From IMG/VR virus record IMGVR_UViG_2887663082_000001, positions 32,761 to 96,760 of that record: a DNA stretch of 64,000 nt; one strand, 5' to 3'. A program made the translations under genes and the position numbers. The stretch comes from a virus (lineage: Duplodnaviria; Caudoviricetes). The notes below the pieces were generated by a model. That model ran no database searches and was not told where the DNA came from. It was given only the letters and a program-made list of their open reading frames with translations. Below, in pieces: positions 29,906-49,874 of this stretch; positions within the stretch are counted from its first letter, which is position 1; the number at the start of each line of letters is the position of its first letter.

Positions 29906-30549
29906 AGGTAGCGCCCCTTGCCGGTAAGCGAGCTCATGGTGACGGACTTGATGCCAGCCTCCTCAGTAGCGCGCACTATTTTCCGGAGTGGTTCGAGTGG
30001 ATCAGGCGGTGTCTCTACCTTCAGGGATGCGTACATCTGTTCAAGGTATGAAACGCTGGTCACGTTTTGATAAACCGTGCCATAAACGCAAACGAGCAGC
30101 AGGATATGCTCGCTCTTAAGCCGCTCCCAGTCGATTCGGTACACCGTGCGCCCGCTGGTGTCATGGTCCATATCAATGAGGTTCTCAGGGATTGTGTAGC
30201 GCTGGCCTGCACCGGATGTTTTAGGTTTGATGATCGCCTTCTGGATATTCAGCTCTCTATACAGATCCAGCGCTTCAACCAGTATCGGCTTTCCGCTTGT
30301 CCCTGGGTTGGCTAACTGGATATGAACGCCGCCGGTTGAACTGAAGAAGCCGCTACGCTCATCCACCAGCACGTCATAACCATCCTTCTCCATCTTGCGG
30401 ATTATCTCCGGTACGACGTTCTGAAGCCCTTTGCGGTCCGTTGGTAGCGTCTGTTCAGTAAGCAGGGAGAGGTTGCCCCTATGCCAGACAGCTTCTACCA
30501 GCATTGGTTTGGCGGTTGAGAGGGTGATGGCGCATATCGCCTTATCCAT
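29902..30549 (-). CDS. mat: P1 Mat-like particle maturation protein
   Basis: AKPMLVE, VLVDE, YRIDW..EHILL..YGTVYQNV, SLTGK. Confidence 0.8.
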   Translation of the reverse strand: MDKAICAITLSTAKPMLVEAVWHRGNLSLLTEQTLPTDRKGLQNVVPEIIRKMEKDGYDVLVDERSGFFSSTGGVHIQLANPGTSGKPILVEALDLYRELNIQKAIIKPKTSGAGQRYTIPENLIDMDHDTSGRTVYRIDWERLKSEHILLLVCVYGTVYQNVTSVSYLEQMYASLKVETPPDPLEPLRKIVRATEEAGIKSVTMSSLTGKGRYL

Positions 30550-30603
30550 AGTCGGACTCCACTGATGATGAAGTGACTATCTTATAATTAGTATTATCTG
30601 TAA
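30548..30603 (-). promoter_or_regulatory. mat leader: RBS hairpin, -10 TAAGAT and adjoining C1-type operator (30586-30603)
   Basis: AATTAGTATTATCTGTAA; minus-strand stem ATAGTC-ACTTCAT/GTGGAGT-GACTAT. Confidence 0.65.
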
Positions 30604-30781
30604 GGAAGCGCGGAATTTAGACAAGAAAAAGGCTGGTGCTTAACCAGCCTTGTGGGTTTGAGTAAACCATTTCTAATGCAACTACTAGACTGCGTGGATT
30701 GTAGCGCTATGTTGGCGATAGAACCAGTAGCGCTTACGGTTGATGTTATGTTTACGTTTCAAATAAGCTCACAATTAGTAT

Positions 30782-31402
30782 TTATAATCTCTCGATATCG
30801 GCGCGTTTACAGGCCTCTGCCAGTAAATCTTGCTGGGTACCGTTCGAATGCTCGAACTCAGCAGGACCGCCAACGTTACCGTCGGCATGAACCGGTATCA
30901 GCCATGGGTACTCACTTCTCAGTTCAGCCGGTGCTGCTTGCTGGTGGTGGTAAATGCATAATGGCAATACGCGTGAATGGGCTCCCGGCGCGGTGCGGCC
31001 ATCGATATGATGCAGGCTGATTAACGGTGAGTTCTTCCCATGCATCAGGCATGCAATACAGGGTAGGGAACCCAGCTTATCCATTACCCGGCGTTCGGCT
31101 GCGGTCGGGGTGCGTCCTTTACTGCCTCGTGGCTTTACAGCGGTTCGAGTTTTGCGGGACGGCTGAGGGGCGGCGTTACGTTTATGCTCGACGGATGCTC
31201 TGCGCTTCTCTTGGTATTCCGCCGAGCGCAGCCGCGCGATAGTTTTATCCCTCTGGCGCTCCTGCGCTGCACGTGCTTTATCGAATTGCTTCTGACGATA
31301 CTCAGGATCTGCGAGCTTCTCTGCGTTACGTGCCCGCTGGCGTTCAGCAGCTGCGCGCTGTCGTTCCCAATTTTTCTCTTTGGCTTCCTGAGTGAGTTCC
31401 AT
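30782..31402 (-). CDS. ref: Ref RecA-dependent HNH nuclease; likely start ATG 31402
   Basis: Basic N-terminal tail; GRTPTAAERRVMDKLG.LPCIAC..LHHIDGRT..LPLC..HH. Confidence 0.88.
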   Translation of the reverse strand: MELTQEAKEKNWERQRAAAERQRARNAEKLADPEYRQKQFDKARAAQERQRDKTIARLRSAEYQEKRRASVEHKRNAAPQPSRKTRTAVKPRGSKGRTPTAAERRVMDKLGSLPCIACLMHGKNSPLISLHHIDGRTAPGAHSRVLPLCIYHHQQAAPAELRSEYPWLIPVHADGNVGGPAEFEHSNGTQQDLLAEACKRADIERL

Positions 31403-31647
31403 CAGAGCTGGCCCAACCATTTGTAACGCTCTACTTGCTGTTCCGAAGTCATTTTCTCCGCGCCGGTTAACGCTAAAGATATGCGCAGCGAACGTAAATG
31501 GAGTTGCGCCCGTATACCACACATAACATAGCCACCAGGCTGATCTGCCGCGAGGCGGGCTATGTTCTCAGCCGTTACCTGGCGGGTGCAGAATTTGTTG
31601 AATACGGCCACTGCGGTGCGGGTAGGGTACATCAGGGGGTTACTCAT
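31402..31647 (-). CDS. Hypothetical protein
   Basis: RBS AGGAG; stop overlaps the ref start. Confidence 0.6.
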   Translation of the reverse strand: MSNPLMYPTRTAVAVFNKFCTRQVTAENIARLAADQPGGYVMCGIRAQLHLRSLRISLALTGAEKMTSEQQVERYKWLGQL

Positions 31648-31656
31648 GGATTCTCC

Positions 31657-31833
31657 TTAATGATTTTTGCTGCGACGTTTTGGTTTGCGGCGGCGCTTAA
31701 AGCCAGCGCGGATCATTGACTTGATTAGTTCGAGCGTACTGAGCGCCAGGATGATGGTGACAGCGAACTTTATCGCCACCAGCCAACCGGTAAGCGAATA
31801 ATCAAGCGCGATATCGATGTAGTGATTAATCAT
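31657..31833 (-). CDS. Small TM protein with basic C-terminus
   Basis: MINHYIDIAL..TM..KRRRKPKRR; coupled to the upstream gene. Confidence 0.55.
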   Translation of the reverse strand: MINHYIDIALDYSLTGWLVAIKFAVTIILALSTLELIKSMIRAGFKRRRKPKRRSKNH

Positions 31834-32348
31834 GGATAGGGGTGAATGCTTTTCTGATTTATAGGTAGGCAGGGCATGCCTGTTTCGGCATAACTGAGGA
31901 TGCGCCACCGCAAGTCATCGAGATAACCGGTCTGGGCAACGTAATATTCGCGCAAAAGGCGAATGCTGACCGCTTCCGTGACTGTCTTTATATCAATCGG
32001 CCTCGGCTTATCGCCATATGGCGGAACACCGGTAGCATTTAGTAGTTCGCGAGCGCGAAACCAGCATTGGCCAAGGTATTCCTCCGGCAGATTAAAAGTG
32101 AAACCTTGGCCTGCCGGTTCGAGCTGAATATGGTTTTGCCTGGCAAGTGAATGTAGGCGTGAGTTGGTTAAGCCCGGTCGCACCTCCAGGCGCTTGGCCG
32201 ACGGGATGCGTATAGCTTTATCCATCCAATAACCGTCATCAGGCGTTAGGGTGTAGCCAGCGTTTTCCGCCAGCAGGGCCGCGCGCGGCAACTGCCTCAT
32301 GGTGGCGAAGAAAATCGCATGAATTATCTTTTCATTGGTCAGTTTCAT
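31830..32348 (-). CDS. Hypothetical protein
   Basis: 172-aa ORF heading the ref operon. Confidence 0.7.
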   Translation of the reverse strand: MKLTNEKIIHAIFFATMRQLPRAALLAENAGYTLTPDDGYWMDKAIRIPSAKRLEVRPGLTNSRLHSLARQNHIQLEPAGQGFTFNLPEEYLGQCWFRARELLNATGVPPYGDKPRPIDIKTVTEAVSIRLLREYYVAQTGYLDDLRWRILSYAETGMPCLPINQKSIHPYP

Positions 32349-32379
32349 AGTGCTAATAATGACACAAAAATAACGTAAT

Positions 32380-32397
32380 AATTAGTATTATCTGTAA
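32380..32397 (+). promoter_or_regulatory. C1-type operator (AATTAGTATTATCTGTAA)
   Basis: Identical to the copy at 30586-30603. Confidence 0.75.
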
Positions 32398-32581
32398 AGG
32401 GTGCGCGACATGCATTGAAAGTATGAGGGTTAGCGAGGAGTTAATTGCATTGCCTGACTGTCATAAGTGCATTAACATCTACGCGTGCTTTTAGCGATTG
32501 TGATTGATTGATGAAGGCATAAGCCCCTGGTTCGCCGGGGGCTACTCATATCTGCTTTGGTGTGTTCTGAAGAGATAAAAA

Positions 32582-32794
32582 ATGGCTAAAAGACAATACA
32601 GTGTGATGCATCTCTTCCCTAAGCTGGTGGCCATGCTGCGCGGGTCTGAAAATCGCCACTTCAACTATGGTATTAAATGGCTGGAGGAGACGGTCATTAT
32701 CTTCCGGAATGGTGAATACCAGATTATGCCAATAAATTACGTGAAATTTTTCGAACCAAACCAAGAAGAGCTCAACATGTTAGCTGCCCCATAA
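32582..32794 (+). CDS. Small hypothetical protein
   Basis: 70-aa ORF with plausible composition; hairpin upstream. Confidence 0.45.
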   Translation: MAKRQYSVMHLFPKLVAMLRGSENRHFNYGIKWLEETVIIFRNGEYQIMPINYVKFFEPNQEELNMLAAP

Positions 32795-33009
32795 GGGGGC
32801 CGCTGATATCCTACGGTAATCCGCCATGCATGACAGGCGGCTTTGTGCCAGAAGCAGTCTTTGCGCCATTGGGTGGATATTAAATAATGAAGCAGGCCAA
32901 CTTGAATAAACAAAAAAATGTATTTATTCAGGATGATTAAAATGAGAATGAATAGTATATTACTTTTGGTGACCGCCCGCGCGGTCACCTTAGATATGGT
33001 GGCAACCAC

Positions 33010-33978
33010 CTAGATCCTTGTACAATCTTTAAGCTCTTTTTCTAGTTGCTCAACCAAGTCAGAGCAATTTTTTACAACCTCTTTAACTGACTCTGAATTT
33101 AATTCATGAAAATTTCCATCTTTTGTTTTACCTGCTCGATGAACTAAGTCATGCCTGATTAACACGCTTTTATAAACATCTGCGAATATAGGAAATCTAA
33201 TACCAAAAGTATCTCGATACATGCCACTTACTTTTGGTAGATTATGATAAAGCACACTCTTCATAGACTCCATCGCTTTAGATTCTATTTCTTCATATTT
33301 TATAAATAACTCCGAAAGTGAAAAATTTTCTTGATTGTAATCTTTAAAATTTTCAACAAAACTTCTTAAGTTCGCTTGACTACCGTGGGTCAAAGAAATA
33401 AAACGGTCACATAAATATGTTTCCAAAGAAGTTATTATATTGGCATACAGCATATAAGTCATTTGTACTTGTAAAACACTATCAATTTGTAACTGAGCAT
33501 CATTAAGCTTTATGGCGTTCAGCATACTATTTCTGAATGTTATATAGACATCGTGTTCAGATAGATTTCGATCATCAGAAAACTGCATATCAATAACATC
33601 TAGAATACGCTGTTCGATTAATGAAGGCCTATTCAACTGCAATACATCTATAGTCGCCTGCCCTCGCTCAGTTAAACCTTCTAAATATCCATTTTTATTT
33701 TGTTTTATATGTTCTGAAAAACTTTCAATCACAGGATTTAGGAGTAATGGTTTACCATTCTCATCGAGAGGAAACTGATCTCGTTTAATCATGTTACACG
33801 CTCTACAAGCGATGAGCAGATTATTTGTATCCTCCTGGAAGTCAGGATACTTTGATTTTGGTAAAAAGTGCTCAACATCCGCCATCAATGGTTCATAAAG
33901 TCTAGTGCCACAGTAAGCACATTGGTGATTAAACTTCTCCCATAGTTCAAGCTTAAGTGTTCTATAATTCCTGATCAT
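33010..33978 (-). CDS. HNH endonuclease fused to HEPN-like domain (candidate defence effector)
   Basis: CAYC..VEHFLPKS..NL..AC..CN; C-terminal R-x4-H (RHDLVH); AT-rich. Confidence 0.8.
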   Translation of the reverse strand: MIRNYRTLKLELWEKFNHQCAYCGTRLYEPLMADVEHFLPKSKYPDFQEDTNNLLIACRACNMIKRDQFPLDENGKPLLLNPVIESFSEHIKQNKNGYLEGLTERGQATIDVLQLNRPSLIEQRILDVIDMQFSDDRNLSEHDVYITFRNSMLNAIKLNDAQLQIDSVLQVQMTYMLYANIITSLETYLCDRFISLTHGSQANLRSFVENFKDYNQENFSLSELFIKYEEIESKAMESMKSVLYHNLPKVSGMYRDTFGIRFPIFADVYKSVLIRHDLVHRAGKTKDGNFHELNSESVKEVVKNCSDLVEQLEKELKDCTRI

Positions 33979-34199
33979 TCAATAGTTCCTTTATAATTCT
34001 GGTTAGTTATCTATTCGTCAGTTTACGCTAAAGAAACGAGCCTTTAATTGGGTTTAAATTATATCTAAATGTAATCTATTAAGCGATCATATTTAATTAA
34101 TAACAAGAGATAACGTTCAATTCACTGTTTGCGGGTAAATGTAACTTAACGTCCGCTCCTCGCTCAAAGCCGCCTGCCATGACTGTTTAAAAAACAGTC

Positions 34200-34622
34200 C
34201 TAGCGTAACATCCGGATCTTCATGAATGCTATGGCTGCTTCTGCATCCGAAGCGCCAAAGACGCGGTTGACGCCAGCAATGACGGATTCTTCCGTTCTGC
34301 TTAGCCGAGAAAGGATGCTCCGGCATACGTACCGATCTGCATGTGCGATGAAGGCATTAGCGGCTTCCATCGATGGCATATGCCGGTCAACCTGAATTAA
34401 GTGAAGAGGGTGCTCCGCGCCGTAATTCAGTGTGCAGGCAACGACTGGAACCCCGTTCCTGATGCCACTTTGCAGGTGGATATGGACGTTGTTGACTACC
34501 GTAACCTTCTTTATCTGATAAATAAGCACATCATTAGTATAATTAGGACCAGAATAGATCAGGACCATGCGATGCTGCACGATCTTCTTCAAGCACAATT
34601 TCGCGTGCCTTAAGCATACCAA
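34200..34622 (-). CDS. Hypothetical protein (true start probably nearer ~34500)
   Basis: ORF downstream in the cre operon; start uncertain. Confidence 0.45.
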   Translation of the reverse strand: MVCLRHAKLCLKKIVQHRMVLIYSGPNYTNDVLIYQIKKVTVVNNVHIHLQSGIRNGVPVVACTLNYGAEHPLHLIQVDRHMPSMEAANAFIAHADRYVCRSILSRLSRTEESVIAGVNRVFGASDAEAAIAFMKIRMLR

Positions 34623-34890
34623 ACTCTGTCAGTTGATAGGTCTGGATTGGTGGTATCTCATTAAGAGTATGAACTGTTAACAGTCCCTGCAGCTCCAACC
34701 GGGCCAAAGAATTGCGTAAATTCTGCGGCCTGGCCTTTCGACCTCCATAGTGCCCATCGATGTAAGCGGCGATAGCGAGCAAGGTCACAGTTGAAAACTC
34801 ACCTTGCTCAATGTACCTACGACCTATACAAGACAAAGCCAACTTTTGAAGAGTTGAAAGCGCCATTATTGCTTTTCTCCTTGATTTCAC
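34543..34890 (-). CDS. Hypothetical winged-helix-like protein coupled to cre
   Basis: LRNSLARLELQGLL..YQLTEFG wHTH pattern; overlaps the cre stop. Confidence 0.6.
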   Translation of the reverse strand: MKSRRKAIMALSTLQKLALSCIGRRYIEQGEFSTVTLLAIAAYIDGHYGGRKARPQNLRNSLARLELQGLLTVHTLNEIPPIQTYQLTEFGMLKAREIVLEEDRAASHGPDLFWS

Positions 34891-35924
34891 TGCTTCATGC
34901 GTTGGCTGTTAACAATATCGAGCATGACTGATTTGTTAGCATCGATATAACGAATATAGTTCATGACCTGTTCTGGCCGTTTCCATGTTCCCTCATGCAT
35001 GATCTGAGTGAGCTCCGTTCCCTTGAGTGCCATATCCTGTGCTGCACCCACTCGCGGGCTGTGTCCGGTCCAGGTTCTGTAACGGGAGGATTCGAGCGGC
35101 GCACCTTTGACTGCTTCCCAGGCTTTGGCAAAAATCTTCTCTATATTTTTTCCGGCCATCGGCTTGGTGGCTGGGTGGGCGTTACCGTACCGGTCCACTT
35201 TGCCAAAGATGTAAGTGGCATCATCGACAAGACCACTGGCATTAAGCCAATCGCGCAGCCAACCGGCGACGTCCGGGGCCAAAACCTTCACCACACCAAC
35301 CTCATCTTTAATCGTTTTGGTGTAACCAATATCGAGGGTTGCTGAACCATCACGCTGAAAGCGCACATCGCTGATGCGCAGGCGCGCGACTTCAGACATG
35401 CGTAACAATGTGTTGTATGCCACACCCAAAAAAGCGAGGTCGCGCAGCTGCTGAAGCTTGCCGCCAGCCTTGGTAATTTCAGCCAGTTGAAATAGATCGT
35501 CTATGTGTAGCGGGATCGCCTGGTCAACCCGTTCGCCGTTGAGCACCGCCTGGCGGCTAATTTTCTTCATGCCGCGAGTTACCAGAATATGTGATGCCGG
35601 TAGGGCCAGTCCGGCCTCTTTATGCACCTTGTTGATCATGGATTTATGCATTGCGACGGTATTTTTCTTGCGGCCAAGCACATCGCGCAGGTAGATCAGA
35701 TACTCGCGAACATCAGCAGGTTCCGCCGGGAGCCAAACCCTGTCGAACTCTTTACACCATAACCCCCAACTGCGTAGCACGGACTTCATTTGAGCCCAGG
35801 TGTTTTCTGAAGCGGCTTCACGGTCGACGAAGAACATGTGCAAATTTTCTGCAATCCGTTCATCATATTTATCTGCGGTAATCAGCAGCTGGGCATCGGT
35901 CTGGTTAACCGGCAAGTTAGTCAT
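34887..35924 (-). CDS. cre: Cre-family tyrosine recombinase
   Basis: RDLAFLGVAYNTLLRMSE (R), TKT (K), GHSPRVGAAQDM (HxxR), GTW (W), VMNYIR (Y); 345 aa; divergent from c1 as in P1. Confidence 0.95.
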   Translation of the reverse strand: MTNLPVNQTDAQLLITADKYDERIAENLHMFFVDREAASENTWAQMKSVLRSWGLWCKEFDRVWLPAEPADVREYLIYLRDVLGRKKNTVAMHKSMINKVHKEAGLALPASHILVTRGMKKISRQAVLNGERVDQAIPLHIDDLFQLAEITKAGGKLQQLRDLAFLGVAYNTLLRMSEVARLRISDVRFQRDGSATLDIGYTKTIKDEVGVVKVLAPDVAGWLRDWLNASGLVDDATYIFGKVDRYGNAHPATKPMAGKNIEKIFAKAWEAVKGAPLESSRYRTWTGHSPRVGAAQDMALKGTELTQIMHEGTWKRPEQVMNYIRYIDANKSVMLDIVNSQRMKQ

Positions 35925-36184
35925 TGGATCATCTCTTAGGTGCTACGGCGCTGATAGCTAAATTTTAAGAAAACTATCACAACATTAGTATATTTTGTTA
36001 AGTTTTTCGTGGTTCTAAATCAGTTTTTATGAAAACAGCCGTATTTTTCATTGAGCGGTGTAATTGCCCGTTGGAAAACTCAGATTTCACGTAGATGCGC
36101 CTATACCTGAGTAATGCGTGTGGGTATTGGCGATTTTGAAAACTGGCCGATCTGCTTTATTAACCATCCCATTTTACACAAAAA

Positions 36185-36218
36185 CAAAGGTAATATAATG
36201 GGTGTTATATTACTTTTG
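36185..36218. other. Candidate lox-type recombination site (13-8-13)
   Basis: CAAAGGTAATATA-ATGGGTGT-TATATTACTTTTG; arms inverted with one mismatch; lies between cre and c1. Confidence 0.8.
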
Positions 36219-36415
36219 TAACTTCTTGGGGGTAGTTTAAAGCTTGCGCACTGATACGATGAGCTCGCGCCGTGGGGATGGATTTTTGCTGTATCGAACA
36301 AATAACGTACAAATCATACTTAATTTTGATGAATGGGTGTCTCGTACTTTTACCCAGCCCATCGGGATGATATACAACCCAAATTCGAAAAATTGTATGA
36401 CTTTAGGATAGATAA

Positions 36416-36664
36416 ATGGCTAATAGTGATGAAATTCTTCCTCTTAACAGTGAGATAACTACTGCGATTCAGAAACTTCACCTTGATATGACCTCACCCC
36501 GCGCCGTCGCCATCCTCATTAGCCATTTCTGTATTGTTAAGGGCTTGAGCTCTCATCCTGCGGAAGAACGAAAGAATCTTCGAAAAGCCCTCAAGTTTCA
36601 GATAAACACGCATGTTAACCAAAAATATACGTCAACCAACTCTGCTTATGGTCGATTTCTCTGA
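36416..36664 (+). CDS. Small protein in the coi/imc position upstream of c1
   Basis: RBS AGGA; synteny only. Confidence 0.55.
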   Translation: MANSDEILPLNSEITTAIQKLHLDMTSPRAVAILISHFCIVKGLSSHPAEERKNLRKALKFQINTHVNQKYTSTNSAYGRFL

Positions 36665-36731: not shown

Positions 36732-37592
36732 ATGTCAGATAGCCGTAAGGGCGAGAACGTCTATAAGGAATTTATAGATTTCCGAGACGCGTTCCTGACA
36801 GATGCTATGGATGAAGCTTCTGCCTGGAGCACGAATAAATTTGGTGAGAGGTTCAGGCCTGTTGTGCTGGTCGCCGCGCGCAGGCTTAAGAAATGGACCG
36901 ATGCAATCGAGCAATGGAAGAAGTACGCCGAAGAACTCAAGAAGTATCCCCAGTTAGGTATCCCTGTTTCACTGTACGAACCAGCCCCAAAGTTCATTTC
37001 TGGGGCAACACGCGTGCGGTGTTATGAGCTGCCTGCGACTGAAGTAAAAAACAAACCTCGTGAGAAAATCCTTGCGGATTATGATCGTGAAATAAAGCGT
37101 TTTGAGTCTATAGACAATACTAATCCATACCTTACGCAGCTGCGTAAAGAGAGAGAAACCTTCGAGGCAATGCCTCCGAAGGCAAAGCTACGTTTACGAC
37201 GCACCGGCTATACCGATCTCAACTGTGCGTATAACACCACAGAAGAAAGCCAGATAATGGTGAGGGTATCAGCATCCGGCGTTTTCTTTGACGAAAGAAC
37301 CCTCGGCCAGGGCTTCACATTTGGCCCTAAAGAGAAAAACACCAGGGCATCGATTTACGCTGAGGTAAGCCCTATTCCTCAATCGCTGTACCCAGGCATA
37401 GACATTTACGATATTGATACCGTTGAGAAAGCAAAAGCGGCACAAAAGAAATATCGCGAAAGTAACGAACAAGAGATCAAGCGTGAACAGTGGGCGCGCT
37501 ACAACAAAAAACGCGCAGCCAAAAATGCGCTGCAGACTGACGCTGAGCATGCGGCCAGTGAGAAAAACCCATCCGGCAGTAGCCAAGACTGA
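36732..37592 (+). CDS. c1: C1-family primary repressor
   Basis: 286 aa; GE..Y.EF..FRD.FL, RPVV and ELKKYPQL.IP match P1 C1 as I recall it; convergent with pacB. Confidence 0.85.
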   Translation: MSDSRKGENVYKEFIDFRDAFLTDAMDEASAWSTNKFGERFRPVVLVAARRLKKWTDAIEQWKKYAEELKKYPQLGIPVSLYEPAPKFISGATRVRCYELPATEVKNKPREKILADYDREIKRFESIDNTNPYLTQLRKERETFEAMPPKAKLRLRRTGYTDLNCAYNTTEESQIMVRVSASGVFFDERTLGQGFTFGPKEKNTRASIYAEVSPIPQSLYPGIDIYDIDTVEKAKAAQKKYRESNEQEIKREQWARYNKKRAAKNALQTDAEHAASEKNPSGSSQD

Positions 37593-37625: not shown

Positions 37626-39134
37626 CTAACTCACTCTACGTTTACGCAACCATTCCTCGGCTTCTGAGCGTGTCTCTTCCTCTTCATGGTAGGTGTCTTC
37701 GTTCGCCGGGGTAAAGTCCACCAGCTGGGTAAAGCAGTACACGTCCCAGTGGTCCGGAGATTTGATGTTGAGCTTCTCACGCATCTGTTCTTTGGGAACC
37801 ATATACCACTGACCAGCTTCATTTAGCCCGCAAGGGATCTTACAAGCCTGGTCGACGGCCTTCCCGCCCTTATCAAACTTAAGACGTCCCTGCTGTACGG
37901 CCATCTTGGCCATGATGTTTGCGTAGGCTCGTTGGTTGATGAATCGCTCTTTATCCTTCTTGGTGTGCATCTTCTTACCCCAGCGGATACGCTGCGCAAT
38001 GATCCCATGCTTTTCTTCCAGCACATCAGCGGTTGTCGCGCCCACACCATCGCCATCGATGGCGATCTGTATGTTGGGGTATTTTTCCGGGTCACATTCA
38101 CTGAAAATGAAGTCTGCAAAACGTGACGGTGTAACGGTCGCTTCCATCTCTTTGACAAGGTGAGGGACGATGCGCCGGTGTTTCCCGTACCCGGATACCC
38201 TGAAGATCCCCATCACTGATTTGTCACGGCCATTACCGACGTCACAACAGCAGATCCAGCCCCAGCCCATAGCGAGAGGGACTTTACGCCGCTGCGCGCG
38301 CTCACATTCATCACGGCCAAGCAGATAGCCAGACAGAGAACTCGGGAACTCACCACGTACTTTGATCAGATACTCTGGCGACTCCCGGCCACCGTAATCC
38401 ACCAGCTTCTCTCTGATGAACTTCAGGGTTACCAGTGGTGACTCTTCAGAGTTGAGCTTAATCGCATTATAGAGACCTTGCGGATTGGCCTCGGTGCGCG
38501 CCAGGCGGTGATGTGAATCATAGAATTCGCCCGCTGTTCGCGTGGGCTGAGAGATAAGCATCAGCCGGTTATCGTCCTGCGTCAGCGCACCCTTGATGAT
38601 ACCGAAGGCTTTATCTGACACGCCTGATGCTTCATCAATGATGTAAAGCAGGTGTTCTGCGTGCTCACCGGCGAGCGCTTCTTCGTTGCCAAGGCGGAAG
38701 CCCTTAGCGATAACCTCCCAGCTGCCCTTCGATGAATTTTCGTAGAAGGTGACGTCAGCCAGGGTAAAGTATTGATCCAGCCATGGGAAGCGCTTCAGGC
38801 ACTCCTTCCAGTTCTGCCGGATGTATTTAAAGATACCTGTCTTAACCTGCTGTAGCTTGTTGGCCACGATAATGATACGAGACTCTGGGAAGAACATCAG
38901 GTAACACAAAATCATGATGGCAGTCATATCAGACTTACCGGTACCGTGACCAGATGATACGGTTGTCCAGCTGCCGGTTTGCTGCACCGACTCGATAATC
39001 TCCTCTTGCTGCCAGGTGGGGATCTTATTGAACATGACTTCTGCCGCAGATACCCAGTCATATCGGTACCGCTTAACCAGCTCCTGCCAGCGAGGATCTT
39101 CAATGACTGAACGCTTAGTTCTTGCTGCCATCAT
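37626..39134 (-). CDS. pacB: Terminase large subunit
   Basis: SGHGTGKS Walker [10 protein letters not shown] Walker B, DVG and SPDHWD nuclease motifs. Confidence 0.93.
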
Positions 39135-40332
39135 CTTTCCCGTAAAGCAGGTTATTTATTTCGTCGTCTGGTACTTCATCTTCAGCAAATTGGGAGATCA
39201 GATTGATGTCGTTAAGTGAGCCATCAGCAGCAATGTCTCCATAGCCGCCACCATCGACCAGGAGGTTAACCGCCTCGCGCTTTTCGGCCATAAGTTGCTC
39301 ATGTCTGGCATGGCGAATCGCCCTTGCCTCTCGTGCCTGGCGGTCCAGTTCCTCAGGGTCATATGTCACAGATTTGACTTTATCGCTCTCACCTTCTTTC
39401 ACTTCTTTACGGGCCATCTCCATCAATAGCGCCGGAACCTTGTAACCATGCGTCTCGATGTAAATCGCGGTATCAACAGCGGTCCACCCGTTCTCCTTGC
39501 GCTGCTGGTAGGCCTGCATGATGTATTCAGGTTCATTGGCTTTACGGTCGTGCTGTTCCTGCTCGCGCTTGTTCTTCGCGTAACTCTGGCGAATACCGGC
39601 AAGGGAACGGGCAGTATCGTTGATTGCACCGGCGGCAGCGGCGGCGACGGATAATGCTTTCGTAATTGGATTTGGGCCTGGTTCGCCATCTTCAGACGGC
39701 GGCGGCTCCTCGGTCAGATAGGTCAGGACCGCCTTAACTGTACGGTTCAGACAGAACAAGTTAACGAGCGATGATTCGATGGCCATCGCCTCTATATCAT
39801 CAACGCCAGCGTCGGCAATTAACCTACGCGCCTCTTCGAGGTCCTCATCATTTGGGATGATGGATGTATCAAGTATCTGGCTCCCGGCCATGTACTGATC
39901 ACGGGCACGCCCTGATTTGGTCTTGGTGGATACCGCATTGATCAGTTTCCCGACCGGCACGCTTTCTTCTGTTTGCCCCGCATCGATGCGCGCGTGTCTT
40001 CCGGCCTCTTTGACTTGCAGACTTAATTCATTGATTTCCTGAGATATGTTTTTAGGCTGCTTCTTGCCGTTATGATCGCTTTTTCCTTTCGCGGGCTTTT
40101 TTTGATCAATTGATCGTTTGGGAGACCGTTTTCCATTGTGATCACCTGCGCGCGCAGCGGGCTGATTGCCGACCTTGGTCGTGCCCTCACCGAGATAGCG
40201 ACGTGCTGTATTGGGGTTCAAACCATAGTTAAGTGCATATTCCTTAATGGAAATCTTTTCGCCCGCCGCCCGCATTTCTGCATAGCGTTCTCTATGTTCA
40301 GACCAGTCCGTTTTTACTGCCACTGCGATCAC
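39115..40332 (-). CDS. pacA: Terminase small subunit
   Basis: [17 protein letters not shown]; upstream of pacB; GATC-rich 5' end. Confidence 0.88.
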
Positions 40333-40382
40333 CCCTTTCCAACGATGATCACAGTCTACTGATCGTTACATCTCGTTTGATC
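40074..40382. other. Putative pac region (GATC cluster) and late promoter LPpac
   Basis: GATC at 40074, 40104, 40112, 40140, 40327, 40347, 40361 and 40379; ATGTAAC-GATCAG-TAGACT at 40371-40353. Confidence 0.7.
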
Positions 40383-40542
40383 ACTTTTGATTGGTGTTCA
40401 TAGGTTTTTTGACAACCATAAAACAGTCCTATTTTTGTTATTTGATGGGTGTTTTATTGATTTTCTCGGTGGTTTTTGTAACATGTGAATCGCTATTTCA
40501 ATCAATCACAAGCAGTTAGCGTTAAACGCAAGGATTAACACT

Positions 40543-42935: not shown

Positions 42936-45900
42936 TTAGAAGTTCCATTTCACGCCTACCATCGCTGCGCTGTCGTTATAGCCTTTGTCGCCGACCTGTA
43001 CCCCTATATTGCCCCAGAGATTGAGTCGTGGACTCACCTGACCTTCCACGCCCACTTTTACCTCGGCGATATTTTTCGCTCCGTCCTGACGAACATTCAC
43101 TCCATCCATGGTCGTACTGAAATCACGTGAATTGTGCAGCCAGTTCAGTTCGGCAAACGGCTGGAACTCACGCTCTTTACCGTTATCCATCTTATGATGA
43201 CTCCTAATCCAGGTTTTCAGGCCCAGTCGGGTCTGCACATTACCGTTACCATCGCTGGAGATACGGGTGCCGTTACTTTCCCGATGGTCGTCGGCTTTCA
43301 CACCCATCCAGATCGCCTGCGCTTGTGGTTGTACAAACCATTCGTTAAGCGTTCCCTGACTGCCGGCAAACTCTCCCACTTTTTGGGCATATCCCATTTC
43401 CAGTGAGGCGGTTACCCCTTTCGATTTATACGATTCGCCCTGCAGGTCATCGCCTTTGACATTGTTATCAAACCAGCTGTATTGAGCCCAGCTATCCAGC
43501 CAGGCGCCATTATGCGACTCATCATTGGCATACCATGTTGCATAAACGCCAGCACTGTAGCCGTTGACTGAACCTTTGGAACTATAACCCGTGCGGGATG
43601 ATTGGGTGTTACTGTGGTCGTTACCATAGCCGGCCATCACGCCAAGATGCCAGCGATCAAGCCCGTTCTGACTCCATTGCGCAATATCCCCCCCCAATTG
43701 CAATACATAACGGTTGCTCTGGGTTTTCAGTTGGCCACTGCCGTCACGCCAATTGTTGTGCCCACCAACGTGGCGCATCCACATACTGGTCACTTTCTGC
43801 TCACCGGTCAGTGCATCGATATACTGTGTTTCACCCAAGCGATCGTACAAACGGGTGACGAACATGTTGTTGGCCGCCGCCAGGTTAGCCGTGTAGCTGC
43901 CGCCTTCCGGACGCAAATCTTTATCGGGATCCGGATTCGGTTTTGGATCCGGATCAGGATTCGTTTTGCCGCTGGTCAGATACCAGTTGCCGCTGTTTTC
44001 ATCCTGACCGCGCCCAAGGCTGTAGTCATATGCCCCCGCCACAATACGGCCGGCCTGGGTAAACTCACCGTCCGATGCGCCATCAACATGGATAACTTCG
44101 ATCCCATCAATCGTTGCGGCCCCTTTCCCACCGGCGTTAGTTACGCTGACGGAAGTTGTGCCACTGGTATCGCCTTTCACCACCAGCTTATCCGTAACGG
44201 AATTGTCATCCCCCAGCACGGTGTTCAAGGAAAGATGACCACCATTACCCGTGTAATTACCATTGACCACCAGTTGATTACCGGCCTGCTGACCATTCAC
44301 ACCAGTTGCGAGGGTACCGCTGTTAACCAGGTCTTTCCCAACCGTGAACAGGAGGTTGTCACCGGTCCCGGTACCCACCTGTAGCACGCCGGCGTTATTC
44401 ACATTACCTGCAACGCCTCCAGTGCCTGAGAGCATCCCCTCAGCAGCAATGTTGACTTCGGTACTGGCCAGTGTGACAGGAGATGTGCCATCCCCCAGAA
44501 CCAGGCCGCCCTGCTCAATATCCGTTTTCCCCGTCCAGGCGGCGTTGTCACCGACGGTAATAGAGCCGGCTCCCAGCTTAGTCACGTCGCCGCTACCATA
44601 AACGTCGTTATCAAGCTGCCAGTCGGTATTACTGTTCAGCACCAGTGAACCGCTGTTGCTCACCTCTGCGCTGCCCAGATTTTCTGCGCTGAACGCGGTA
44701 AGCCGGGAATCCACATCCACAGCAAATTGCCCCGTAAAGGTACTGTTGTTGCCCACCAGCGCGACATCGCTTTCGCTGAGTTCAACCCGTCCGGCATCGC
44801 TGATACTGTTGTAAAGCGCACCTGCCGCCTTGCTCATCGTCAGCGTTCCCGCCGCCACGATATCGCCCGTGCCAAGACCCAGTGTGGTGTTTATCAGCAC
44901 GCGCGCACCTTCTGCAATGGTCGTTTTTGCCGTCAGCGTGCTGTTTTCACCGGTAATGGTTAGCGTATCGCCATTGATGTTTAGCGCACCGCTTCCGGTC
45001 AATATTCCATCGGCTGTTCCGCCCTGTTCCAGGGTCAGGCTACCGCCATTGATGTTCAGCAGTGAGTCAGCCGCCGCCGTCAGCTTACGGACCGTCTGAC
45101 TATAACCGTTCATGTCAAAACCGGTATCGGCAGCAAGACGCAGTTCACTGGTCTGTCCCAGAACATTATCGTTTTTCATCAGCAGGTTGCCGCTGCGTAC
45201 ATCGGTGATACCGGTGTAATCGTTATCCATATTCGACAGCGATACCGTCTGGCCTCTGGCGCTGTCAAAAACCAGGTCGCCACTGCCGGTCACGCGAGCG
45301 CTGAGATCTGCGGCATTACCGGCCTTTCCGTTCGCATCCAGGACCAGTGCATTGTCTCCAGAGGCCAGCAGTTCGACCTGTGTCAGACCATAGCTAATGT
45401 ACAGCCCGTCATCATTTTCCCCTCCGGTAAGGCGATAATCATAGGTACCGTTCGCAACAATCTCGCCATTTTGGCTGATGCCGGCTTCAATCCCATCGCT
45501 GATGATATTGCCATTGCTATCGGTGAGCGTCAGATTGCCTGCACCGCCGGAGACGGCAGTATCTGAGGTTGCCAGTTGAATCAGCAACTGCGCATCATCC
45601 TGTTCAAGAAGTGATAGCGTGGTATCAGTCAATGGACGATCGTTAGTAATTGTGCCGCTATCAACCTGCACGGTTCCGCGTCCGGAGAGATCCATCGCGC
45701 CAGCATGAATTGTTCCTTCGGCACTGCTCTGCCCCGGCGTCACACCGTCAAAGCTGACGGTACCGCCGTTAAACGCCAGGCCGCCGATATTCTGCTCACC
45801 GGACCCCACGTGAGTGGTGTTACCCTCACCAACATTTAATGTTGCCTGACTCAGCGCCTGGGTATTTAATCCGGCCAGCTCAAAGGTGCTGTTTGTCAGT

Positions 45901-48900
45901 GCCAGCGTCCCCTTGAATCCATCAGCCGCATTGTTGCTGGTAAAATCAAACGCTTTACCGCTGGCGTCAACGGCGACCGTTCCCGTTCCCGCCAGATGGC
46001 TGTTAAAGGCCAGCGCAGCGTCAGATTTCAGCGACAAGGTGCTGGTCGCATCAATGTTGTAACCCGTACCGATCGCATCGTTTTGGTTATCACCCAGCGC
46101 ATAAGCAACATTATTAACGGTAAATACTGAACCCGCGGTGAGATCGATATGCTCCATGCCGGTAATAGCATCTGCACGATTGAGGGTGTACTGTGCGTTA
46201 TTCAGCTGAAGTTTATCCTCGCCGTCGCCACCATTGAGGCTAGTAAACAGCGAGGTTTCTGTCTCTTTGACATTTTTCAGTACGTACAGATCGTTACCAC
46301 TGCCCGTCTTGATGTCGGTTGCGGTACTGCCAGATTCCAGCGTAACGGTGTTATCACCGCTCATCAGGTTAACCTGACCAACGATGCTGGCGCCCGCCGC
46401 GTTAGTAAACGCAATGCCTGCTCCTGAGAGCATTTCTACCGCTTTTTGGGACGCATCCAGCGCTTTAATAATGCCTTTATTGATAAACGTTTCCAGGGAA
46501 CCGTTATCAATATTTACCACCGAGTTGCTTGTCGATTTCGAAGTCAGCTCACCAGCCTGTTCAACATTTTTGGTCGTGCCACCAACAACCAACGCTTCAC
46601 CACCGTTAGCGTCGAGCACGTTAACGCTGACGCCTGTTTTCAGATCGGTTGACGCATTGGTGACGATCCCTTTGCCCGCAGCCTGCTCAACATTGATAAC
46701 CAGATCGCGGGAGTCAGACATATCCAGCGTTTGATTCGTTTCGCTGCCGTCGATATTTTCAAACAGGATCCCTGTTCCGCTCCCCGTAACGTTAATCGTT
46801 CCGGAGTTAGTTTGCGCCAGGGATGCTCCGGTATGAATACCAATGCCATTCCCCACACTGATAGTTGTATCTTTTAGCTGAATACCCGCAATATTGGCGA
46901 CGTTTTCAATGGCGCTTCCTTTACCAGTACTATCCATTGTAATGGTAGCTCCATCGACCAGCAGGCCTTGCGCACCGGCGGCCAGCAAGATACCGTGCGC
47001 GTCTCCCGATGCTTTGGTTTCTCCCGAACCTGACAGACTTAATGACGCATCATTGCCAACGAGATAGGCTGCGGTACCATCCGTCGCGCTAACCGTCGCA
47101 TTGTTGTTCACAATAGAATCAGCGCCTTCAATACTGACCGCCACGCCATTAACCTTGATGTCGCCGTCGTTATTCAACGTACCGCCGGAAACCATCACGC
47201 CTGTGCTGTCCGCCTGATCAAAGTCGATGTTGCCTTTATGGTTGAGAGTACCGCCGTTACGAGCGATGTAGCCGAAAGCGCCATCCGCTGTATTGCTGGT
47301 ATTCAGCGTGGCGTGGCTGGTCAGTACGGAATCGCCTTTTTTGGTTGCATCGACTGTGCCATCAAGGTTGTAGTAATTGCCATCAACAATCCCGGCCGTG
47401 GTGTCTTTTCCAGAAACGTTGATCACAGCATCCGAAGAGATTTCGCCCGTGGCGCCCCCTTCAATACGGATCCCCGTCGCGCCGGTTCCCGTGACGCTGA
47501 GCGCCAGCTTGCCGGAATCAAAATGGCTGCCGGCACCGGTGGTACGAATAATGGAGGCACTTTTACCAGATGCATCCAGCCTGGCGGAACTGTCTTCGGA
47601 CCCGGCAAAGCTGGCACCGCCGTCAATGCGATACAGCGTCGCGCCCTCTGTGGAGGCATCCTGAATGCTAGACGCAGCATTTTTAATAGTCGAACCCGCC
47701 CCGTAGACGTAATAGCCCGTCTGGTTAATACCGTCGGTGAAGTTAACAGTTCCGTTCTCGGTGACGTCAATTTCGCCTTTATCACGGGCATGTACGCCAA
47801 TTGCCCCGTCACCGCTCAGGTTTACCGTACCGGATAATATGGCCAGAGCTTTTTCACCCTGCGCGTAAACACCATAGTTGGCATAATGGGTGATGGGGTC
47901 GAGCCCACCATTAATATTTATGGTGCCAGAACTGGTAACCTGCGCATTCGTCAGCGCCTTTACCCCGATGCTGTTCAGGCCGTTCAAATTAATAACGCCA
48001 GCATTCACCACCTTCGCCGCCTGGGTTCCCTCACGCGAGAGGATCCCGATATTAGAGGCGACGGACTCACCGGTCACGGCACCGTTAATATCAATAGTGC
48101 CTTGCTGATTGAGCGTCGCCGCACCGCCAACGTCAATTGCCGTTGCGTTCTGGACTTTGCTGCCGATAACTATTTGCGAAGTATCAGAACCGTTATAAAT
48201 CCCGTTACCGTAGAGCTGAACGCCAACGGAATGCTGTTTGATAGCAATATCAGAAGTCGTATCTGTCGGAGCACGTTGCGCCAGGCGGCCAATGTAGAGC
48301 GTTCCACGATTGTTAAAGATAGTATTTTGCTGAGTCACCACACCGATGTTGGCGCCATCGCCCAGAATGCTGCTGGCTTCGTTACTTGCGGCAATATTGA
48401 TCGCGCCATCGTTATTTAACGTCGCACTTCCACTCATTAACACGCCGGTATTACCGTAGTAATTCCCCCTAGCCGCCACGTTAATCACGCCCGTGGTATT
48501 ATTGTTCACTACCGACTGGCCGTTGGCGAGGATTGCCGTATGTACGCCTGCAGCAACTCCTGCAGCACCGCCCTGGAAAAAGGCGGCCATCTCCGGGTTA
48601 GTGCCGGCATCAATCACGCCATTGTTCTCAACAAAGGAGGTATTTCTTGCCGCAATGACGTATGCCCCACGGTAGGTGTTTCCGGCGGTGCCGAGGGTAC
48701 CGTTATTGATCAGCGTCGCGCCGTTCTCGAGGTTAACCACGGTGGCATCTGAACCTACCAACTGGACATTGGCATCGTTATCGATAGTCACGTTGCTGTT
48801 GCTGCCTTCGCCGTGAATATAGGAAACAGCATCACGGTTAACAAAGGCCCGTACTGCATCGTCAGAGGCAATAGCACCAGTATCGGCAAAAATACCGTGT

Positions 48901-49874
48901 AAGGAGGCGTCGCGTGCTTTATTCAGCTCAGCAGCGTACTGCTCTTCAGTGAGTTGAATTGTGCCGTCCTGAAGGGCCTTAATCAGCGCATCATTGTAGG
49001 CCTTAAACTCCGCAACGTTGGTAACGTTTTGCTCACCGATAACGCTGTTAAATGAGCCTACAAAATCAGCAGCAGTCATCCAGGCAAGCGCGTTGCTGCT
49101 ATCCTTAATATTGTTATCATTATTGCCCAGCTGAACCACGGTTTTGGCCTGATAGTTAATACTACCTCCATCGGTTACGTGAAAAGCTGAGGACAGGTTT
49201 TTATTGTTTACCGAGCTTTTCAGAATAACGTTGAACTGATTTTCTGCTGCGCCCATCCAGTTACCAGTTTTCTGGCCGACGTCCACATCAAGCGAATCAC
49301 CGGCACCGATCTGATAAAAATTACGATCGACATACTGGCCATCTTTGCCGACCGGCGTTGACACCACAACCCTGAAGTCTTTTGCGGCCTCGGTTTGCAT
49401 ATCGCTATTATCAAAAACATTCATGGTGACCGTACTGCCCGTCACCGGATCTATGTAATTAATCGATTTGGTCTGCGATCCCATGCGGAAAATATCTTTA
49501 TCAACCCATTGCGCGGAATCGTTGGTAATCACCCCCTGGTCTCTTGCCTGTTCCAGAGTCATCCACTGACTTCCTGATGCCCCTTTCGTGATACCGGCAA
49601 AGCTACCAACAAGGCGTGATGAACCTGAGATAATCTCCTCGAAGGGATCCTGTGGCGTAAAGTCATGAACCTGTATATCAGCAGCGATAACTTCGGACGC
49701 GCATGCCGTAAAGATTCCCAGGACAATCGCCGAGAGCGTAAATGTTTTAAGACGCTTAGGTGAATCTGGGTTAACGAGACTACGAGATATTCGACAGTAC
49801 CCTTTAGCAAGTTCTGAAACCACCACAAATGCATTCATCTGGGCATTCCAGATAACTTTAAATACTTTATTCAT
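42936..49874 (-). CDS. Giant type Va autotransporter adhesin (AIDA-I-like), 2312 aa
   Basis: ESPR signal MNKVFKVIWN..VVVSEL; beta-helical passenger; PD-rich linker; beta-barrel ending KWNF. Confidence 0.93.
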   Translation of the reverse strand: MNKVFKVIWNAQMNAFVVVSELAKGYCRISRSLVNPDSPKRLKTFTLSAIVLGIFTACASEVIAADIQVHDFTPQDPFEEIISGSSRLVGSFAGITKGASGSQWMTLEQARDQGVITNDSAQWVDKDIFRMGSQTKSINYIDPVTGSTVTMNVFDNSDMQTEAAKDFRVVVSTPVGKDGQYVDRNFYQIGAGDSLDVDVGQKTGNWMGAAENQFNVILKSSVNNKNLSSAFHVTDGGSINYQAKTVVQLGNNDNNIKDSSNALAWMTAADFVGSFNSVIGEQNVTNVAEFKAYNDALIKALQDGTIQLTEEQYAAELNKARDASLHGIFADTGAIASDDAVRAFVNRDAVSYIHGEGSNSNVTIDNDANVQLVGSDATVVNLENGATLINNGTLGTAGNTYRGAYVIAARNTSFVENNGVIDAGTNPEMAAFFQGGAAGVAAGVHTAILANGQSVVNNNTTGVINVAARGNYYGNTGVLMSGSATLNNDGAINIAASNEASSILGDGANIGVVTQQNTIFNNRGTLYIGRLAQRAPTDTTSDIAIKQHSVGVQLYGNGIYNGSDTSQIVIGSKVQNATAIDVGGAATLNQQGTIDINGAVTGESVASNIGILSREGTQAAKVVNAGVINLNGLNSIGVKALTNAQVTSSGTININGGLDPITHYANYGVYAQGEKALAILSGTVNLSGDGAIGVHARDKGEIDVTENGTVNFTDGINQTGYYVYGAGSTIKNAASSIQDASTEGATLYRIDGGASFAGSEDSSARLDASGKSASIIRTTGAGSHFDSGKLALSVTGTGATGIRIEGGATGEISSDAVINVSGKDTTAGIVDGNYYNLDGTVDATKKGDSVLTSHATLNTSNTADGAFGYIARNGGTLNHKGNIDFDQADSTGVMVSGGTLNNDGDIKVNGVAVSIEGADSIVNNNATVSATDGTAAYLVGNDASLSLSGSGETKASGDAHGILLAAGAQGLLVDGATITMDSTGKGSAIENVANIAGIQLKDTTISVGNGIGIHTGASLAQTNSGTINVTGSGTGILFENIDGSETNQTLDMSDSRDLVINVEQAAGKGIVTNASTDLKTGVSVNVLDANGGEALVVGGTTKNVEQAGELTSKSTSNSVVNIDNGSLETFINKGIIKALDASQKAVEMLSGAGIAFTNAAGASIVGQVNLMSGDNTVTLESGSTATDIKTGSGNDLYVLKNVKETETSLFTSLNGGDGEDKLQLNNAQYTLNRADAITGMEHIDLTAGSVFTVNNVAYALGDNQNDAIGTGYNIDATSTLSLKSDAALAFNSHLAGTGTVAVDASGKAFDFTSNNAADGFKGTLALTNSTFELAGLNTQALSQATLNVGEGNTTHVGSGEQNIGGLAFNGGTVSFDGVTPGQSSAEGTIHAGAMDLSGRGTVQVDSGTITNDRPLTDTTLSLLEQDDAQLLIQLATSDTAVSGGAGNLTLTDSNGNIISDGIEAGISQNGEIVANGTYDYRLTGGENDDGLYISYGLTQVELLASGDNALVLDANGKAGNAADLSARVTGSGDLVFDSARGQTVSLSNMDNDYTGITDVRSGNLLMKNDNVLGQTSELRLAADTGFDMNGYSQTVRKLTAAADSLLNINGGSLTLEQGGTADGILTGSGALNINGDTLTITGENSTLTAKTTIAEGARVLINTTLGLGTGDIVAAGTLTMSKAAGALYNSISDAGRVELSESDVALVGNNSTFTGQFAVDVDSRLTAFSAENLGSAEVSNSGSLVLNSNTDWQLDNDVYGSGDVTKLGAGSITVGDNAAWTGKTDIEQGGLVLGDGTSPVTLASTEVNIAAEGMLSGTGGVAGNVNNAGVLQVGTGTGDNLLFTVGKDLVNSGTLATGVNGQQAGNQLVVNGNYTGNGGHLSLNTVLGDDNSVTDKLVVKGDTSGTTSVSVTNAGGKGAATIDGIEVIHVDGASDGEFTQAGRIVAGAYDYSLGRGQDENSGNWYLTSGKTNPDPDPKPNPDPDKDLRPEGGSYTANLAAANNMFVTRLYDRLGETQYIDALTGEQKVTSMWMRHVGGHNNWRDGSGQLKTQSNRYVLQLGGDIAQWSQNGLDRWHLGVMAGYGNDHSNTQSSRTGYSSKGSVNGYSAGVYATWYANDESHNGAWLDSWAQYSWFDNNVKGDDLQGESYKSKGVTASLEMGYAQKVGEFAGSQGTLNEWFVQPQAQAIWMGVKADDHRESNGTRISSDGNGNVQTRLGLKTWIRSHHKMDNGKEREFQPFAELNWLHNSRDFSTTMDGVNVRQDGAKNIAEVKVGVEGQVSPRLNLWGNIGVQVGDKGYNDSAAMVGVKWNF

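Follow-up and report, generated by a model that had tools for sequence, protein, structure and literature searches.

Does the Cre homologue encoded by a P1-like element act on the lox-like palindrome that lies upstream of its gene, and would the two form a recombinase pair distinct from those already described? The question arises from a 96,760-bp viral record of IMG/VR, of which we analysed bases 32761-96760 (64,000 nucleotides, hereafter the window). We addressed it by examining the gene and the palindrome themselves, the genes around them, the loci of relatives at increasing distance, and the known Cre-type systems.

The recombinase gene, the palindrome and their neighbourhood

The sequence-only reading of this DNA had claimed an intact Cre-family gene (with the residues R-K-HxxR-W-Y), a 34-bp site made of 13-bp inverted arms with one mismatch, an asymmetric 8-bp spacer and TATA at its flanks, and a position of this site about 260 bp upstream of the gene, toward c1, as for loxP in P1. 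The analysis bears out each of these points (Table 1). The gene is full-length. Residues 16-337 of its product match the Cre PDB chains (Cre residues 15-338; phmmer, E 1.1e-71), a match to solved structures that is enough to establish the fold. The homology spans the N-terminal and catalytic domains, and the length falls in the 300-400 aa range of Cre-type enzymes. When aligned with P1 Cre and Dre using MAFFT, the protein shares 38.5% identity with P1 Cre and 37.7% with the Dre protein of phage D6, and the catalytic hexad is complete, six residues out of six (R175, K203, H288, R291, W314 and Y323, aligned with R173, K201, H289, R292, W315 and Y324 of Cre). The candidate promoter of the gene sits inside a well-conserved block of the intergenic alignment; the sigma-70 consensus scan that gave it found promoter matches no more numerous than in shuffles.

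The arms of the palindrome (36185-36197 and 36206-36218) enclose a spacer (36198-36205) that reads ATGGGTGT, or ACACCCAT in the cre sense. They are mismatched only at position 5 (G vs A), both have T at position 7, and both end in TATA next to the spacer. The inverted repeat grows by one base inward and one outward, giving a 15-6-15 arrangement. Cre cleaves one base inside its 8-bp spacer, and this extension would thus fit the Cre geometry. The site lies 260 nt upstream of the cre ATG, between cre and a distant C1 homologue. A uniform-base calculation gives an expectation of about 0.04 palindromes of 13-8-13 geometry with at most one mismatch per 64 kb, and three are observed in the window; within 9 kb of cre, the lox-type site is the sole palindrome of this geometry with up to two mismatches. 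The 96,760-bp genome has a single copy of it, even when three mismatches are allowed. Experimentally active sites have in common the bases G/T-A-T/G-A adjoining the spacer and a T at position 7 (PMC10250229), and both features are present here. The single arm mismatch is no concern, since natural sites with mismatched arms are active (one mismatch in VloxP and two in SloxP; PMC3082901).

Table 1. Features of the cre-lox-type locus, with coordinates in the window.
Feature	Coordinates	Strand	Basis
Small gene directly downstream of cre, placed like P1 c8, 107 aa	34543..34866	-	ORF list
cre-like gene, 345 aa, Cre-type tyrosine site-specific recombinase	34887..35924	-	ORF; Pfam PF00589 Phage_integrase
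Candidate sigma-70-like promoter for cre (TTAACA, 17-nt spacer, TG-GATAGT)	35973..36001	-	Consensus scan; putative
34-bp lox-type site, CAAAGGTAATATA ATGGGTGT TATATTACTTTTG	36185..36218	.	13-8-13 inverted repeat
82-aa ORF, placed like P1 coi/imcAB	36416..36664	+	Same-length ORF in relatives (L001, L002, L071, L073)
Distant P1 C1 repressor homologue, 286 aa, transcribed away from the site	36732..37592	+	tblastn; NCBIfam
pacB-like terminase gene, 502 aa	37626..39134	-	PHROG terminase large subunit; counterpart in relatives annotated terminase
pacA-like terminase gene	39115..40332	-	Gene order as in P1
Candidate pac site; TGATCR/YGATCA hexamers in two groups of four, ~190 bp apart	40073..40383	.	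5' end of pacA-like gene

The genes around the site are organised as in P1. Read in the orientation of cre, they are pacA, pacB, c1 (on the opposite strand), a small ORF, the site, cre and a small gene, an order equal to the pacA-pacB-c1-coi/imc-lox-cre-c8 of the P1 annotation. The 286-aa ORF matches c1 of P1, P7 and RCS47 with about 26% identity (tblastn, E 1e-21 to 1e-27) and the NCBIfam model phage_rep_C1 (NF041318) with E 3e-29, which is below the equivalog cut-off; the C1-like orthologues of relatives carry PF27008. No family match was found for the 82-aa ORF. The start of the small gene downstream of cre was chosen among ATG codons to agree with the relatives, hence its length; its counterparts in Citrobacter plasmids are annotated as helix-turn-helix transcriptional regulators, and its PHROG match is weak. 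On the other side of the module, the 5' end of the pacA-like gene is rich in hexamers of the type of which P1 pac is built (TGATCR): there are eight in 311 bp, against 0.83 per kb window-wide, i.e., roughly 30 times the density. This candidate pac, with a presumed function and packaging direction, lies about 4.0 kb from the lox-type site, and the pac cleavage of P1 (90804-90813) lies 3.99 kb from lox. We consider it highly probable that the locus represents the Cre/lox module of a P1-like phage-plasmid.

The module is bordered by other material. The stretch from 30000 to 34228, with a 322-aa HNH-domain gene at 33010-33978, forms a slot for variable cargo that separates the cre module from the ref module. 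The HNH stretch is specific to the element of the window, since megablast similarity to the Citrobacter plasmids ends at about 34229-34301, past the small gene. Further away, a 2312-aa ORF (42936-49874, minus strand) adjoins a ParM-like partition gene; cargo of this size is unusual in a P1-like phage.

Conservation of the site and co-variation with the enzyme

A megablast of the locus against the phage collection gave no match, and relatives came from protein-level searches. The nearest public ones are two circular, non-mobilizable plasmids of Citrobacter freundii (98.8 and 96.9 kb) that encode ParM, terminase, tail and Ref genes; to judge from what they encode, these Citrobacter relatives are phage-plasmids with a P1 lifestyle. 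The same 34 bp, position-5 mismatch included, are found in both C. freundii plasmids and in IMGVR_UViG_2906128962_000004 (loci L001, L002 and L008). In these three elements Cre is about 90% identical, the DNA about 81%, and the distance from site to cre is 260 nt. The public Citrobacter plasmids with this site 260 bp from cre are CP056338 and CP145667. When the intergenic regions are aligned, the longest run of unchanged columns (40) has the site at its core and adjoins a stretch that has diverged almost wholly.

Metagenomic relatives with 85% and 74% protein identity have CAAAGGTAATATA ACCCCCAT TATATTACCTTTG at 250-263 nt upstream of cre, i.e., perfect arms around a spacer that is one base off that of the window. 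Because the arms of these relatives are perfect, we take CAAAGGTAATATA as the consensus half-site and the A in the arm of the window as a derived asymmetry. Further out, each homologue at 52-57% identity has exactly one 13-8-13 palindrome between c1 and cre, and both of its arms are altered together. The arms are CCAAGGCAATATA/ACATCCAA in a Pantoea plasmid and CCAACTCTATATA/ACATCCAT, CAAAGATAACATA/ACATCCAT, CCAAGATTACATA/ACATCCAA and TCAGGTATATATA/ACTACCCA in other homologues of this range. The orientation of the spacer is unchanged in them (AC..CCAT or AC..CCAA in the cre sense), and the ..CAT end beside the cre-proximal arm is common to P1 loxP (GCATACAT) and D6 rox (..GGCAT).

The enzymes vary along with the arms. 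Selectivity between loxP and rox was found experimentally to be set by Cre positions 43, 259 and 263 (PMC4957104). In the clade with the common half-site, the residues at Cre positions 43, 44, 259 and 266 are constant (A, Q, K and A), and position 263 is K as well, the 74% relative (N) being the one exception. Clades with other half-sites show different residues at Cre positions 43, 259, 263 and 266, and the two homologues that have C for T at arm position 10 both have R258 and V259. Site and enzyme co-vary: the half-site is kept at protein identities of at least 74%, and the arms are jointly changed at 52-57%. The cognate Cre/lox-like pairing that had been proposed is supported by this conservation and co-variation across relatives, and the palindrome is very likely the target of the Cre homologue.

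Other roles of the palindrome and the expected reaction

Inverted repeats can have other functions, and the palindrome could instead be a terminator, or an operator of the C1-like repressor, of the 82-aa protein or of the product of the small gene that follows cre, the Cre homologue then acting elsewhere or needing a more complex site. We regard this as very improbable. The terminator reading draws on the RNA hairpins of the close clade, which fold at energies between -11 and -15.5 kcal/mol, with z-scores of -3.2 and -3.9, and on the T-run TTTTTGTGT located 3' of the hairpin on the cre-sense strand. Yet the terminator scan does not call the palindrome, the stem as read from the sequence is AT-rich with about three G-C pairs, and on the cre-sense strand no gene reads toward the site for 1.4 kb. 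Moreover, the T-run is missing in the 52-57% homologues, in a 42%-identical homologue (L036) and in Cronobacter phage JK004, all of which retain the 13-8-13 palindrome. With a negative scan, no incoming gene and a T-run lost in distant homologues, the terminator reading was set aside. An operator of C1 was likewise rejected: the genome has this site only once, whereas the C1 operators of P1 are many, spread genome-wide, and in several cases annotated.

The general success rate of such predictions also favours caution: among palindromes predicted near Cre-type genes, only 8 of 17 recombined (PMC10250229), which makes architecture and proximity alone a predictor that is right about half of the time. 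Against this, there is no second 13-8-13 palindrome with up to two mismatches within 9 kb of cre. The in silico support of the candidate also exceeds that of a bare palindrome near a gene, as it includes synteny with P1, conservation of the site under divergence, and co-variation of enzyme and arms.

Only in the close clade (Cre at least 74% identical; 36170-36232 in the window) does the cre-sense strand continue past the palindrome with TTTTTGTGT or TTTTTATGT. The lox-type site of this clade might double as a weak terminator.

Taking the palindrome as the recombination site, the reaction can be outlined by analogy with Cre/loxP. A recombinase dimer would bind the two 13-bp arms, each related to the consensus half-site CAAAGGTAATATA, and two bound sites would synapse into a tetramer. 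Tyr323 would then cut within the spacer, one base from either end, so that the overlap is 6 bp long (TGGGTG), and strands would be exchanged through a Holliday junction without any accessory protein. If the element lives as P1 does, recombination after infection would circularise the terminally redundant DNA packaged from the nearby candidate pac, a role suggested by the location of the site about 4 kb from the pac-like site, as in P1. The recombinase would also resolve dimers of the plasmid prophage.

Specificity, novelty and potential use

Set against the known systems, the pair shows both resemblances and differences. Cre/loxP of P1 shares with it a two-domain tyrosine recombinase of nearly the same length (343 aa, 345 aa here) with a common catalytic hexad, a 13-8-13 site with TATA beside the spacer and T at position 7, the gene order, a distance of about 4.0 kb between lox and the pac site (a candidate one here), and the orientation of the spacer (..CAT beside the cre-proximal arm). 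The two differ in protein sequence (38.5% identity, as given above) and in the outer six bases of the arm, CAAAGG here and ATAACT in loxP. They also differ in the residues K43, R259, G263 and E266 of Cre, which are A, K, K and A here. P1 has about 420 nt between site and gene, whereas the 260 nt of our locus hold no cra-like ORF, and the host element has ParM instead of the ParAB of P1. The half-site has six mismatches in 13 positions with loxP, six with rox, six to seven with vox and seven with SloxM1. This agrees with the earlier claim that the arms differ from loxP and rox in their outer part, the differences from loxP being mostly in the outer six bases.

Dre/rox of D6 is likewise formed by a Cre-type enzyme of a P1-like phage and a site upstream of its gene, with K at the Cre-263 position and an A-rich inner arm. 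It is set apart by the 37.7% identity of the enzymes, the six half-site mismatches, and R43 and P259 in Dre, compared with A and K here. Vika is a much more distant protein, from Vibrio. The vox spacer ACGCCCAT matches ACACCCAT at 7 of 8 positions (vox sequence from PMC8718833), arm positions 4-7 are AGGT in both sites, and the arms of both are asymmetric at position 5. The inner arms differ, with CTGAGA in vox and AATATA at our site.

Two further loci bear on the sequence of the half-site. A degenerate arm pattern, run over the viral and genome collections, returned mostly chance AT-rich palindromes, and a Cre homologue was close only in L035 (the same contig as L008) and in L036 (IMGVR_UViG_2600254917_000001). 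In the latter, the Cre homologue (gene at 445-1494) is 42% identical to ours and the site (308-341) has half-sites AAAAAGTAATATA and CTAAAGTAATATA, nearly equal to those of the window. Its spacer, ATGGCACT, points the other way with respect to the gene, and several specificity positions have other residues (T43, I258, P263, H266). L036 and the enzyme of the window are possibly a natural case of one target for two very different enzymes. In the chromosome of Klebsiella sp. I138 (NZ_CP180447.1; L064:6950-6983), a perfect palindrome with a symmetric spacer, CAAAAGTAATATA GCCATGGC TATATTACTTTTG, lies between two minus-strand ORFs, and its arms are identical to one arm of the site of the window. 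No Cre homologue was found near it in the 8-kb locus, and it may be a chance occurrence, a terminator or a pseudo-lox.

Cronobacter phage JK004 has, at L006:1412-1445 and about 1.5 kb upstream of cre, a loxP variant, TTAACTTCGTATA, with one change in the outer arm and a spacer that is that of loxP; the record leaves it unannotated. Its Cre was considered as a distant enzyme with a loxP-like site and rejected, as the alignment gives 79% identity to Cre. With a protein that close to P1 Cre, the loxP-like site is unsurprising and uninformative on specificity.

Whether the pair is new is a separate matter from whether it works. The screen of Jelicic et al. 2023 (PMC10250229) looked in NCBI nt for Cre homologues 300-400 aa long that are accompanied, within 1 kb on either side, by palindromes of 13-15 bp with an 8-bp spacer, a logic that is the same as the one that led to our site. 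It yielded about 500 predicted pairs and, among the 17 tested, the validated fraction that is given above. The YR1-YR12/lox1-lox12 systems and the predicted pairs of that study, together with Panto/pox and Nigri/nox (PMC4957104), share with our locus a Cre homologue of this size that has the catalytic residues and, at most 1 kb away, a palindrome around an 8-bp spacer. The Citrobacter plasmids would be caught by a screen of this type, since their identical site and cre match what it looks for. It is thus conceivable, with a probability that we place somewhat short of even, that the pair is active and yet no new or orthogonal tool, either because published collections already list or have tested it or its Citrobacter twin (~90% identical), or because Dre, Panto or YR4 cross-recombine the site. 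The identical site in the public CP056338 and CP145667 speaks for the former. For the latter speak the promiscuity of Dre, Panto and YR4, and the recombination by YR4 of a site that differs from its own at seven half-site positions (PMC10250229).

Several observations point the other way. A full-text search of the literature found no occurrence of the sequence of the site in a relevant context, the supplementary tables of PMC10250229 being outside its reach. The half-site is six or seven positions out of 13 away from loxP, rox, vox and SloxM1. Given the distances that PMC10250229 reports, the site must differ from pox and lox8 at at least four positions and from lox4 at at least five, and therefore cannot be any of these three; it may be identical to nox or to lox2, lox9, lox11 or lox12. 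VloxP, the arms of which share 7 of 13 positions with loxP, as many as here, shows no cross-reaction with Cre (PMC3082901), which makes orthogonality to Cre plausible. Tentatively, and with more doubt than confidence, we propose that the pair may be an active, accessory-free and never-characterised system that is orthogonal to Cre, Dre, Vika, VCre, SCre, Panto, Nigri and the YR enzymes.

Orthogonal Cre-type recombinases are combined in multi-step genome engineering and in genetic circuits, where each validated pair that does not cross-react is an extra channel, and the pair described here could plausibly become an additional tool of this kind. The family already counts about 20 characterised and hundreds of predicted pairs, of which the candidate is one more member. 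If the assignment is true, its relatives would be a ready-made specificity series: one half-site with enzymes 74-100% identical and the spacers ACACCCAT and ACCCCCAT, the 42%-identical enzyme of L036 with an almost equal half-site, and enzymes at 52-57% identity with arms changed stepwise. With such a series, the determinants at Cre positions 43, 258, 259, 263 and 266 could be mapped directly. For the biology of these elements, it would mean that the cyclisation and dimer-resolution module of P1 is conserved in a divergent lineage of phage-plasmids associated with Citrobacter.
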